The notes below the pieces were generated by a model. It searched no databases. It saw only the letters and a program-made list of their open reading frames with translations, and was not told where the DNA came from. A stretch of 64,000 bases of DNA, from the NCBI RefSeq assembly GCF_045037415.1, contig NZ_CP173438.1. The stretch is one strand, 5' to 3'. Source of the stretch: Escherichia coli. GTDB taxonomy: Bacteria; Pseudomonadota; Gammaproteobacteria; Enterobacterales; Enterobacteriaceae. The translations under genes were made by a program, and so were the position numbers. Positions 33,611 through 36,305 of this stretch are shown piece after piece; position 1 is the first letter of the stretch, and every line of letters begins with the position of its first letter.

Positions 33611-34368
33611 GCTGGCGACTGGTCTATGCATCAGCCGTTGGAACGTCGCACATCAGTGCGGACTTGCCTTGCCAGGATGCCTGCCAGATACAGGTTGCCT
33701 GGCTAAATGACCAGCAGCCATTATTGTCGGTATTTGTCGCTGATGGCGCAGGTAGCGCCTCGCAGGGAGGCGAAGGTGCGATGCTCGCCGTCAATGAAGC
33801 GATGGCTTATATGTCGCAAAAAGTGCAGGGCGGGGAATTGGGGCTTAATGATGTCCTCGCAACGGACATTGTGCTGACCATTCGTCAGCGACTTTTTGCC
33901 GAGGCGGAAGCCAAAGAATTAGCGGTTCGCGATTTTGCCTGCACGTTTTTGGGATTGATTTCATCAGCTAATGGCACCTTGATTATGCAGATTGGCGATG
34001 GCGGCGTGGTGGTAGATTTGGGTCACGGTTTGCAACTGCCGCTCACGCCGATGGTGGGGGAATATGCCAATATGACGCACTTCATTACTGATGAAGATGC
34101 CGTTTCCAGACTGGATACTTTCACCAGCACTGAGCGTGCGCACAAAGTTGCAGCATTTACGGATGGTATTCAGCGACTGGCGTTAAATATGCTGGATAAT
34201 TCTCCGCATATGCCTTTCTTTACCCCGTTTTTCAATGGACTGGCGTCAGCAACGCAGGAACAACTCGATTTATTACCTGAATTGTTAAAGCAGTTTTTGT
34301 CCAGCCCGGCGGTAAACGAGCGTACGGATGATGATAAAACGTTGGCACTGGCGCTGTGGTTACCATGA
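33607..34368 (+). CDS. yegK: PP2C-family Ser/Thr phosphatase YegK (PphC), 253 aa
   Basis: PP2C-like metal-binding Asp residues (FVADGAGS..., IGDGG); GTGA overlap with yegL and ATGA overlap with yegI. Confidence 0.82.
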
Positions 34369-36305
34369 AACCCACTTTATATACTGCTACTGGTGAGTGC
34401 GTTACGCCAGGCCGTGAACTGGGCAAAGGCGGCGAAGGTGCGGTTTATGATATCGAGGAGTTTGTCGAGAGCGTCGCCAAGATTTATCACACGTCGCCTC
34501 CCGCCTTAAAACAGGACAAACTTGCCTTTATGGCTGCGACAGCTGACGCGCAGTTGTTGAATTATGTCGCCTGGCCGCAGGCAACGCTTCACGGTGGACG
34601 AGGTGGAAAAGTTATCGGTTTTATGATGCCAAAAGTTTCTGGTAAAGAACCGATTCATATGATCTATAGCCCGGCACATCGTCGCCAGAGTTACCCTCAT
34701 TGTGCGTGGGATTTTCTACTCTATGTTGCGCGCAATATTGCTTCATCTTTTGCTACGGTTCACGAGCACGGGCACGTCGTGGGTGACGTAAACCAGAACA
34801 GCTTTATGGTAGGTCGCGACAGCAAAGTGGTGATGATTGATAGCGACTCCTTTCAGATTAATGCCAATGGTACACTGCATTTATGCGAAGTCGGCGTGTC
34901 GCATTTTACGCCGCCAGAGCTGCAAACCATGCCATCATTTGTCGGCTTTGAACGCACAGAAAATCACGATAATTTTGGCCTTGCGTTGCTGATATTTCAC
35001 GTCTTGTTTGGTGGGCGGCATCCTTATTCCGGTGTACCGCTTATCTCTGATGCGGGTAATGCGCTGGAGACGGATATTGCCCATTTCCGTTATGCCTACG
35101 CGTCAGATAATCAGCGACGTGGTTTAAAACCGCCGCCACGATCGATTCCGCTGTCGATGTTACCGGGCGATGTTGAAGCCATGTTTCAGCAGGCATTCAC
35201 GGAAAGTGGCGTGGCAACCGGGCGTCCGACGGCAAAAGCGTGGGTAGCGGCACTTGATTTACTACGCCAACAGTTAAAGAAATGTACCGTTTCGGCAATG
35301 CATGTTTATCCCGGTCATTTGGCTGACTGCCCATGGTGTGCGCTGGATAATCAAGGTGTTATCTATTTTATTGATCTCGGCGAAGAGGTCATTACCACCG
35401 GCGGGAATTTTGTGCTGGCGAAAGTCTGGGCGATGGTGATGGCGTCAGTAGCACCGCCAGCATTGCAATTGCCATTACCCGATCATTTCCAGGCTGCTGG
35501 CAGGCCGCTTCCTTCAGGCCTGTTAAGGCGCGAATACATCATTCTGATTGAGATCGCACTGTCAGGGTTATCGCTGCTGCTTTGCGGCCTTCAGACAGAA
35601 CCGCGTTATATCATTTTGGTTCCCGTGCTGGCGGCTATCTGGATTATTGGCAGCCTGACAAGCAAAGCGTACAAAGTAGAAGTCCAGCGACGAAGAGAGG
35701 CTTTTAATCGCGCAAAAATGGACTATGACCATTTAGTCAGCCAGATCCAACAGTTGGGCGGGCTGGAAGGTTTTATCGCCAAACGGGCGATGCTCGAAAA
35801 AATGAAGGACGAAATTCTTGGGTTACCGGAAGAAGAAAAGCGCGATCTGGCAGCACTTCACGACACCGCAAGGGAACGGCAGAAGCAGAAGTTTCTGGAG
35901 GGATTTTTTATTGATGTTGCCTCTATTCCCGGCGTTGGCCCTGCGCGTAAAGCGGCGTTACGGTCCTTTGGTATTGAAACAGCAGCGGACGTTACCCGAC
36001 GGAGCGTTAAGCAAGTTAGGGGTTTTGGTGATCATCTGACCCAGGCGGTTATCGACTGGAAAGCGAGTTGCGAACGCCGTTTTGTTTTCAGGCCGAACGA
36101 AGCGGTAACGCCTGCAGACAGACAAGCGGTAATGGCAAAAATGGCCGCCAAACGACATCGGCTGGAATCGGCGCTGACTGTCGGTGCGACAGAGTTGCAG
36201 CGATTCCGCCTTCAAGCTCCAGCACGGACCATGCCGTTGATGGAACCGTTACGTCAGGCGGCAGAAAAACTGGCTCAGGCGCAGGCTGATTTAAGCCGTT
36301 GCTGA
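34356..36305 (+). CDS. yegI: Hanks-type Ser/Thr protein kinase YegI with TM segments and C-terminal HhH-containing domain
   Basis: Gly-rich loop GKGGEGAVYD, catalytic HGDVNQNSF and DFG-like DSDSFQ; two predicted TM helices; HhH-like IPGVGPARKAALRSFG. Start is either GTG 34356 or ATG 34365. Confidence 0.82.
   Translation: MVTMKPTLYTATGECVTPGRELGKGGEGAVYDIEEFVESVAKIYHTSPPALKQDKLAFMAATADAQLLNYVAWPQATLHGGRGGKVIGFMMPKVSGKEPIHMIYSPAHRRQSYPHCAWDFLLYVARNIASSFATVHEHGHVVGDVNQNSFMVGRDSKVVMIDSDSFQINANGTLHLCEVGVSHFTPPELQTMPSFVGFERTENHDNFGLALLIFHVLFGGRHPYSGVPLISDAGNALETDIAHFRYAYASDNQRRGLKPPPRSIPLSMLPGDVEAMFQQAFTESGVATGRPTAKAWVAALDLLRQQLKKCTVSAMHVYPGHLADCPWCALDNQGVIYFIDLGEEVITTGGNFVLAKVWAMVMASVAPPALQLPLPDHFQAAGRPLPSGLLRREYIILIEIALSGLSLLLCGLQTEPRYIILVPVLAAIWIIGSLTSKAYKVEVQRRREAFNRAKMDYDHLVSQIQQLGGLEGFIAKRAMLEKMKDEILGLPEEEKRDLAALHDTARERQKQKFLEGFFIDVASIPGVGPARKAALRSFGIETAADVTRRSVKQVRGFGDHLTQAVIDWKASCERRFVFRPNEAVTPADRQAVMAKMAAKRHRLESALTVGATELQRFRLQAPARTMPLMEPLRQAAEKLAQAQADLSRC

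Follow-up and report, generated by a model that had tools for sequence, protein, structure and literature searches.

Which of two arrangements of the yegL-pphC-yegI locus of Escherichia coli is the older, and by what kind of event did the other arise? Most of what is known about the species comes from K-12, yet at the pphC-yegI junction K-12 has the minority, derived form. An earlier note on the stretch of DNA analysed here (64,000 nucleotides of contig NZ_CP173438.1, assembly GCF_045037415.1; "the window") had stated that a small, oppositely oriented gene, yegJ, separates yegI from pphC (yegK) in K-12, and had observed that here the two genes abut. The statement on K-12 is accurate: MG1655 carries yegI (b2070, minus strand), yegJ (b2071, plus strand, 153 aa, DUF2314), pphC (b2072, minus strand) and yegL (b2073, minus strand), and alignment with the window found no direct yegK-yegI junction in K-12.

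The direct junction in the window is equally clear (Table 1). It reads ...CTGTGGTTACC ATGA AACCC..., with pphC and yegI sharing 4 nt, and the yegL stop overlaps the GTG start of pphC as GTGA (33607-33610). A mechanical ORF list places the yegI start at GTG 34356; the ATG at 34365, giving 646 aa, is supported as the probable start because the N-termini of homologues (MxxTLYT..G....GRELGKGGEG) and the RefSeq annotation agree. Strain SK1144, which is 100% identical, is annotated by RefSeq with the same layout (pphC 3708-4469 and yegI 4466-6406 in the numbering of the fetched locus). The absence of an intervening ORF of about 150 aa was also seen correctly: apart from pphC and yegI, the sole junction-crossing ORF of at least 50 aa has 64 aa (TTG start, 34232-34426, minus strand). 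A search of the whole window for a DUF2314 (YegJ) homologue returned none (best tblastn E = 1.7 with K-12 YegJ), and searches for a relocated yegJ or for remnants of the K-12 segment gave chance-level matches only (tblastn; blastn with word size 7). Pfam matches, the SK1144 RefSeq annotation and the Sib RNAs place the locus in the order mdtA, ibs/sib, yegL to yegI, yegD, alkA. The two Sib repeats score 143.5 bits (32662-32804) and 136.5 bits (32334-32476) against Rfam SIB_RNA, Ibs toxin coding sequences are annotated in SK1144, and yegD converges on yegI with a gap of 12 bp after the yegI stop.

Table 1. Features of the yegL-pphC-yegI locus and its borders, in window coordinates
Feature	Position	Strand	Description
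yegL	32951..33610	+	219-aa ORF; vWA-domain protein (Pfam VWA PF00092, E = 2.4e-10; SK1144 RefSeq annotation); first of three genes of the predicted operon
pphC (yegK)	33607..34368	+	253-aa ORF; PP2C-type Ser/Thr phosphatase (Pfam PP2C_2, E = 4.3e-52); RefSeq name pphC
yegI	34365..36305	+	646 aa (K-12: 648 aa); atypical eukaryote-like Ser/Thr kinase; RefSeq "protein kinase YegI"
ATGA overlap	34365..34368	+	yegI ATG (34365-34367) and pphC TGA (34366-34368); putative translational-coupling junction; read from sequence
50-bp allele-specific segment	34360..34409	+	3' end of pphC (last two codons plus stop) and codons 1-15 of yegI; blastn/comparison with MG1655
yegD	36318..37670	-	HSP70-family protein (Pfam HSP70; RefSeq annotation mapped from SK1144); bounds the variable interval on the right
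Two SibRNA/ibs type I toxin-antitoxin repeats	32334..32804	-	lie between mdtA and yegL and bound the interval on the left

Three co-directional genes joined by 4-nt start/stop overlaps (GTGA and ATGA) are likely to be co-transcribed. A sequence scan detected no promoter-like site between yegL and the yegI start in the window, and yegI here probably lacks a promoter of its own, with transcription coming from upstream of yegL. YegI may be translated by ribosomes coupled to PphC termination, which would tie the ratio of kinase to phosphatase.

The K-12 form differs at one point. Its flanks (mdtA, ibs/sib, yegD and alkA) are those of the window, and yegL, pphC and most of yegI agree at about 95% nucleotide identity, but the 50-bp segment of the window corresponds by pairwise alignment to 785 bp in K-12 (782-787 bp across K-12-type strains). 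This K-12 segment, where G+C content stands at 37% versus 52%, comprises the last two codons of pphC, a hairpin, yegJ in opposite orientation, 199 bp of spacer bearing divergent promoters, and a divergent 17-codon 5' end of yegI. The final two PphC residues are LP in the window and AE in K-12. The difference that had been predicted for the YegI N-terminus is real (MKPTLYTA in the window, MKTNIKVF in K-12): the K-12 N-terminus is MKTNIKVFTSTGELTTL followed by GRELG, and the K-12-type protein opens with MKTNIKVFTSTGE. By manual count, only about half of the nucleotides in the yegI 5' codons agree between the two alleles. The hairpin that follows pphC in K-12 has a centroid energy of -19 kcal/mol (z = -2.7). 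RpoD SELEX has detected promoters of yegI and yegJ in K-12 that are divergent and carry an H-NS flag (PMC3946193), and a consensus scan of the K-12 insert recovered the same promoter, ATGATA-17-TACAAT. YegJ itself is a DUF2314 protein with a signal-peptide-like N-terminus; a sequence search of the PDB yielded no informative relative.

The earlier note had offered either an uninterrupted operon in this strain or an insertion in K-12. The operon is uninterrupted here and K-12 does hold extra DNA, but the change is a replacement of 50 bp by 785 bp instead of a clean insertion. Transposon-like insertion of the K-12 segment is unsupported, with neither target-site duplications nor repeats at the borders when the junction sequences were checked by eye. 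Substitution of some 785 bp of AT-rich DNA at the junction would have provided a new pphC end and hairpin, the opposite-strand yegJ, an H-NS-flagged spacer with divergent sigma-70 promoters, and a divergent but homologous 17-codon yegI 5' end; yegI would thereby be uncoupled from pphC.

The difference between K-12 and window-type strains is real but has been known since publications of 2018-2020: presence/absence polymorphism of yegJ was described by Rajagopalan, Nagle and Dworkin (2018) and by Rajagopalan and Dworkin (2020) (bioRxiv 10.1101/303594, 10.1101/819920), and the ATGA overlap of pphC and yegI was reported for REL606 and O157:H7 (bioRxiv 10.1101/819920). The window shares gene order, overlap and absence of yegJ with that operon type and is a member of the same allele class; the O157:H7 architecture is the same, with sequence identity of 95.1% over 3.5 kb and 91.9% in pphC. 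To the published account can be added population frequencies, outgroup polarity, the exact borders of the replacement, and the occurrence of yegJ in the same interval of Superficieibacter.

Among 5,426 complete E. coli genomes, the locus is present in 5,416, the window-type junction in 3,471 (match of at least 96% identity; about 64%) and the yegJ segment in 1,909-1,934 (about 35%). The yegJ-containing state is not peculiar to K-12, and these counts correct the claim in the literature that yegJ occurs "only in K strains". It matters for studies of YegI and PphC that physical coupling of their genes is found in about 64% of complete genomes, and that in K-12 the kinase differs at its N-terminus and has a separate promoter with an H-NS flag. 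Biochemistry of the PphC phosphatase has been reported (bioRxiv 10.1101/303594), as have YegI kinase activity and its dephosphorylation by PphC; the authors of that work found no conditions of robust pphC expression, and yegI was seen only weakly, in stationary phase (bioRxiv 10.1101/303594, 10.1101/819920).

Comparison with other taxa gives the polarity. Among 80 loci fetched from other species (GTDB species representatives, one genome per species, including cryptic Escherichia clades, Klebsiella spallanzanii, Burkholderiales, Frankia, Planctomycetes and Bacteroidia), yegI directly follows pphC in 76; the remaining four have no yegI match beside pphC or just a 3' fragment. The three genes adjoin one another in nearly all 80, a cassette shared across many phyla. 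None of the 80 loci has a YegJ homologue within about 5 kb. The 50-bp segment is identical in all eight sampled yegJ-less E. coli and in Escherichia sp. MOD1-EC7003, cryptic Escherichia clades carry the same 50-bp junction, and the window YegI N-terminus aligns to distant homologues from residue 1. Because the cryptic clades and distant loci have pphC and then yegI directly, the window form is ancestral and the K-12 form derived. The reading that we hold with considerable confidence is that the window retains the ancestral, majority yegL-pphC-yegI arrangement, and that the K-12-type replacement is a derived allele that has long coexisted with it and is exchanged by homologous recombination.

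Where yegJ came from bears on the most durable of the alternatives. No donor of the 785-bp segment was found; the 80 homologous cassettes, as noted, are without YegJ. Three clusters of divergent YegJ labelled E. coli (P0011, P0023 and P0094) proved to be metagenome contigs or error-rich assemblies with the standard arrangement, and a 62%-identical relative (P0026) was rejected as donor because its surroundings are unrelated, consisting of genes for AraC, fucosidase and GDSL lipase. Superficieibacter electus and a metagenome genome related to it carry a yegJ of 75-76% amino acid identity directly downstream of yegD, in the K-12 orientation and within an alkA-yegD-...-mdtA interval that is without the kinase cassette. 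A simple model of foreign insertion into the operon does not account for this position. The gene could instead be an old Enterobacteriaceae resident of the yegD-mdtA interval that local rearrangement put inside a later-acquired cassette, the window having lost an ancestral neighbour. A chance landing twice in one interval is unlikely, and the dS of yegJ is a similar multiple of that of yegD in three comparisons (1.3x, 1.75x and 1.9x), as under faster vertical descent, although dS is saturated and the ratio is weak evidence. Against this history, homology between the two genera is limited to yegJ and about 18 bp upstream, the gene is richer in A+T than its neighbours in both, and the homologue search found YegJ at 75% identity or more in no further named Enterobacteriaceae genus. 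In the cryptic Escherichia clades the junction is without yegJ, and no single inversion or insertion converts yegD-yegJ-mdtA plus cassette into yegI-yegJ-pphC. We regard an old residence of this kind as unlikely, though it deserves to be kept in mind.

A loss of yegJ by deletion from a K-12-like ancestor, with the abutting genes as a derived scar, is far harder to sustain. In its favour, the yegJ allele is old and widespread (35% of genomes, haplotypes up to 7% apart), and many lineages must have changed state at some time. The 50-bp junction, however, is not contained in the 785-bp allele, and the yegI 5' codons diverge as described above; because those 50 bp are absent from it, deletion cannot regenerate the junction, which could be restored only by recombination with an existing yegJ-less allele. 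No junction that is a sub-sequence of the 785-bp allele occurs among the 3,471 genomes whose junction agrees with that of the window at 96% identity or more, and the 50 bp, the ATGA overlap and the N-terminal pattern recur in cryptic Escherichia clades and distant phyla. Deletion is accordingly very improbable. That the abutting genes are an artefact of assembly or annotation can be dismissed as next to impossible: the 3.5-kb region is 100% identical in three independent complete genomes, the junction is found in 3,471, and it has been described experimentally for REL606 and O157:H7.

Under the preferred reading, both alleles would long have been present in E. coli, moving between backgrounds by homologous recombination. 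All seven sampled yegJ alleles share one architecture, which points to a single origin; they form four haplotypes, 93-96% identical, and yegJ evolves under purifying selection (dN/dS 0-0.25, dS 0.05-0.16); to judge from this sequence divergence, the derived form looks old. In seven yegJ-less and seven yegJ-containing E. coli sequences no fixed difference separates the allele classes, not even within the 100 bp next to the segment, and dxy approximates pi. Trees of the flanking genes interleave strains of both classes. A recent single introgression was rejected, since flanking variation does not track the indel.

A more ambitious extension, which we consider rather improbable, would see here an ancient, recombination-shuffled polymorphism, possibly under balancing selection, that switches a TerY-P-like module between a coupled operon and a split, H-NS-silenced, independently promoted mode. 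In it, YegJ (secreted-looking, under purifying selection and envelope-damaging when overproduced) would work with the module or against it, having been recruited from the yegD-mdtA interval next door, its present place in Superficieibacter. The literature on E. coli yegL-pphC-yegI reports very low expression and no phenotype, defence included. Assignment to a catalogued defence system was rejected, PADLOC giving no convincing match and NCBIfam matches being sub-threshold. YegL and PphC matched no PADLOC-DB v2 family at E ≤0.01, a weak negative given that TerY-P models in PADLOC v2 are unconfirmed; YegI, whose kinase-profile matches are weak in general, matched only PD-T4-6 (E = 2.7e-4) and MkoA (E = 5.7e-4), both weakly and over the kinase core.

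The TerY-P triad, as presented in PMC11090510, groups a vWA protein of the TerY type with a PP2C phosphatase and a Ser/Thr kinase (Anantharaman et al. 2012), and the same source mentions stand-alone anti-phage versions (Gao et al. 2020). The window agrees with it in the three domain types and in their order within one predicted operon, taking the kinase activity from the literature. TerY-P kinases carry a C-terminal zinc ribbon or OB fold; in that part of the window YegI, Pfam gave only a sub-threshold HHH_5 match at residues 518-554.

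In the window, as the earlier note held, the stop codon of pphC (yegK) overlaps the start codon of yegI: read directly, the junction is ...CTGTGGTTACCATGAAACCC..., and an ATGA is common to the yegI ATG (34365-34367) and the pphC TGA (34366-34368). The yegL/pphC junction is likewise an overlap (GTGA, 33607-33610). No ORF of about 150 aa lies between pphC and yegI, the one additional ORF of 50 aa or more across the junction being a 64-aa TTG ORF on the minus strand, and no YegJ (DUF2314) homologue was found in the whole 64-kb window. SK1144 and two further complete E. coli genomes are 100% identical to the region over 3.5 kb, and their RefSeq annotation has the same gene layout. 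Although a mechanical ORF list extends yegI to a GTG at 34356 (649 aa), RefSeq, the conserved N-termini of homologues and the xTGA overlap (GTGA in E. whittamii and E69) put the true start at the ATG (34365). The junction observation is thus confirmed, and the interpretation given to it supported.

Features of the yegD-mdtA interval in the window
Feature	Coordinates	Strand	Remarks
mdtA	30823-32217		flank of the interval
Sib RNA/ibs toxin-antitoxin repeats (two)	32334-32476, 32662-32804	-	between mdtA and yegL
yegL	32951-33610	+	vWA domain
pphC/yegK	33607-34368	+	PP2C_2, E = 4e-52
yegI	start ATG 34365	+	third co-directional ORF
yegD	36318-37670		flank of the interval

The gene order given for K-12 in the earlier note proved right: MG1655 has yegI (b2070, -), yegJ (b2071, +, 153 aa, DUF2314), pphC (b2072, -) and yegL (b2073, -). 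Aligned by pairwise blastn, the window and the reverse-complemented K-12 region share two collinear blocks of ~95% identity each. Between the blocks the window has 50 bp (34360-34409) and K-12, where there is no direct junction, 785 bp. In window orientation the K-12 segment (37% G+C vs 52% for the operon) runs from the final two pphC codons and the stop through a hairpin (10-11-bp stem, z = -2.7, centroid -19 kcal/mol) and yegJ, which lies on the opposite strand, to a spacer of 199 bp and the first 17 codons of yegI. PphC ends in AE* rather than LP*, and YegI begins MKTNIKVFTSTGELTTL in place of 15 other residues, a difference that had been anticipated. Because the segment also holds the last codons of pphC and the first 17 of yegI, the K-12 state is a replacement; of the earlier alternatives, an uninterrupted operon here or an insertion in K-12, both the uninterrupted operon and the extra DNA in K-12 stand, and a clean insertion does not.

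The direction of change can be read from homologous loci. A PphC scan of one genome per GTDB species yielded 80 loci, including cryptic Escherichia (L003, L004, E. whittamii L005 and L035), Klebsiella spallanzanii and many Burkholderiales, and spanning Pseudomonas, Frankia, myxobacteria, Planctomycetes, Chloroflexota, Paenibacillus and Bacteroidia. A yegL homologue directly precedes pphC in 78 of these and yegI directly follows it in 76, while none has a YegJ homologue in its ~5-kb flanks. Among cryptic Escherichia, MOD1-EC7003 has the identical 50-bp junction and E1V33 departs from it by one change; there are about ten differences in E. whittamii and E69, which start with GTG within a GTGA overlap. 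From residue 1 onward the window YegI aligns with distant homologues, and it conforms to the family pattern M-x-[KR]-T-[LF]-[YVF]-T-[SA]-x-G-x-x-[IV]-x-[ILV]-G-R-E-L-G-K-G-G-E-G. Given the outgroup loci, the cryptic-clade junction and this N-terminal pattern, sequence comparison identifies the uninterrupted state as ancestral for both the cassette and Escherichia, and the yegJ state as derived.

Within E. coli, the 50 bp are identical in all eight yegJ-less strains sampled, and in Escherichia sp. MOD1-EC7003, whereas those strains show 2-4% variation in the adjoining 100-bp windows. The pattern suggests that the overlap and N-terminus are strongly constrained or else that the haplotype has spread recently.

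A plain foreign insertion leaves the position of yegJ in Superficieibacter unexplained: beyond E. coli, the nearest YegJ (75-76% aa identity) belongs to Superficieibacter electus and a related metagenome genome (L083 and L084, both 6001-6462), where yegJ sits directly downstream of yegD, oriented as in K-12, within the alkA-yegD-...-mdtA interval, and yegL-pphC-yegI is absent from both. That yegJ landed twice independently in this interval would be a great coincidence. It is either an old resident there or was moved between genera by recombination through conserved flanks. Nucleotide homology between the E. coli and Superficieibacter genes covers the gene and ~18 bp only, and yegJ dS, although saturated, scales with yegD dS (1.3-1.9x in three comparisons). 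The yegD-mdtA interval appears to be a general accessory-gene hotspot in Enterobacteriaceae, since in S. electus the yegJ-mdtA stretch (L083 6914-11261) also carries immunity-protein and effector-related domains (Pfam SUKH_5/SMI1_KNR4, Tli3, Tle3_C and Imm52).

The seven yegJ-positive alleles examined all have the same architecture and borders, which points to a single origin. They form four haplotypes, 93-96% identical over the segment, with yegJ dS of 0.05-0.16 and dN/dS of 0-0.25; yegJ is an old gene under purifying selection, not a decaying insertion. In neighbor-joining trees of yegL, pphC, three yegI segments and yegD, strains with and without yegJ interleave, and Cn5 (without) groups with A1_181 and MEI7 (with) in most segments. 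No 100-bp window, junction-adjacent ones included, contains a fixed difference between the classes, and divergence between them equals diversity within them; variation in the flanks shows no linkage to the indel. The 50 bp do not occur within the 785 bp, so a change of state takes homologous recombination with the other allele, which has evidently occurred often. The K-12-type N-terminus still fits the family pattern (F-T-S-T-G rightly spaced, L before GRELG), with about half of the nucleotides of the yegI 5' end identical to the window by direct count, and identity jumps to ~96% from the Gly-rich-loop codons on. A divergent but homologous yegI 5' end may have been imported together with yegJ from a donor cassette, later recombination trimming the foreign DNA down to the part too divergent to recombine. 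No donor was found among the 80 loci or the YegJ homologues searched.

Of 5,426 complete E. coli genomes, 5,416 carry the locus. A 300-bp probe with the window junction at its centre gave end-to-end matches in 3,471, and the K-12-specific segment was present in 1,934 (coverage at least 80% in 1,909), or ~64% window type and 35% K-12 type; the remaining few dozen carry IS insertions or deletions (e.g., matches H30 and H31). The segment is less than 99% identical to that of K-12 in 778 yegJ-positive genomes, and positive isolates come from pig, dog, duck, cattle, gull, kite, soil and humans, ETEC H10407 included. The statement that yegJ is "only present in E. coli K strains" (PMC13232886) is therefore too narrow, with 1,909-1,934 of these genomes carrying it. 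Among the rare variants (H30, H31 and L092 1-1225), strain 19-5 matched only 8% of the probe; the annotation of the matching stretch lists no more than yegD and a hypothetical gene, which fits loss of the cassette. Strain PI24 has an IS1 under its yegJ-segment match, and in A21 ISEc13 adjoins ibsA.

The polymorphism itself is already published, and our additions are incremental. Rajagopalan, Nagle and Dworkin (bioRxiv 10.1101/303594; J Bacteriol 2018) placed pphC immediately upstream of yegI in REL606 and showed yegJ separating the two genes in MG1655; the ATGA overlap was made explicit for REL606 and O157:H7 by Rajagopalan and Dworkin (bioRxiv 10.1101/819920; FEBS Lett 2020); and Gopel et al. 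(2026, PMC13232886) restated the polymorphism. The window carries the ordinary, ancestral, majority allele. Its cassette, which behaves as a mobile unit across phyla in the 80 loci, has the composition and order of the TerY-P triad (vWA, PP2C, Ser/Thr kinase). PADLOC defence profiles gave no convincing match for it, and the likeness is one of architecture, with membership unproven.

No promoter-like site was found between yegL and the yegI start in the window and both junctions are 4-nt overlaps, so a single transcript with coupled translation of phosphatase and kinase is likely. As PphC dephosphorylates autophosphorylated YegI in vitro (bioRxiv 10.1101/303594), such coupling would set PphC:YegI stoichiometry. 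In the K-12 spacer, genomic SELEX placed divergent RpoD promoters (yegI TTGTTA-18-TATAAC, yegJ ATGATA-17-TACAAT), flagged as H-NS associated (PMC3946193), and our consensus scan of the segment recovered the yegJ promoter. The replacement would thereby equip yegI with a new translation start and with a promoter of its own that is probably silenced. Conditions of robust expression were not found by the authors who worked on the locus (bioRxiv 10.1101/303594; 10.1101/819920; PMC13232886). YegJ binds RNase E, and its overproduction damages the envelope; it is listed as cytosolic, and recovered two-hybrid fragments start at residue 16 (PMC13232886). The N-terminus of K-12 YegJ (L001 5186-5647, in the MG1655 region), MKKILLMLSLLFFTTAGFSEV, resembles a cleavable Sec signal peptide, and a periplasmic YegJ might better fit the envelope damage.

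pphC is unusually polymorphic, especially at ~33660-34060, with pairwise diversity reaching 6-10% per 100-bp window at 300-700 bp upstream of the junction vs 1-4% in yegD; in E69 (L035, labelled E. coli) PphC is only 82% identical and YegL 97%. Introgression or diversifying selection could account for this polymorphism, and activity differs between the B and K proteins according to Rajagopalan et al. (bioRxiv 10.1101/303594). Copies of Sib/ibs at the mdtA-yegL site range from 1 to 4 among the fetched E. coli strains.
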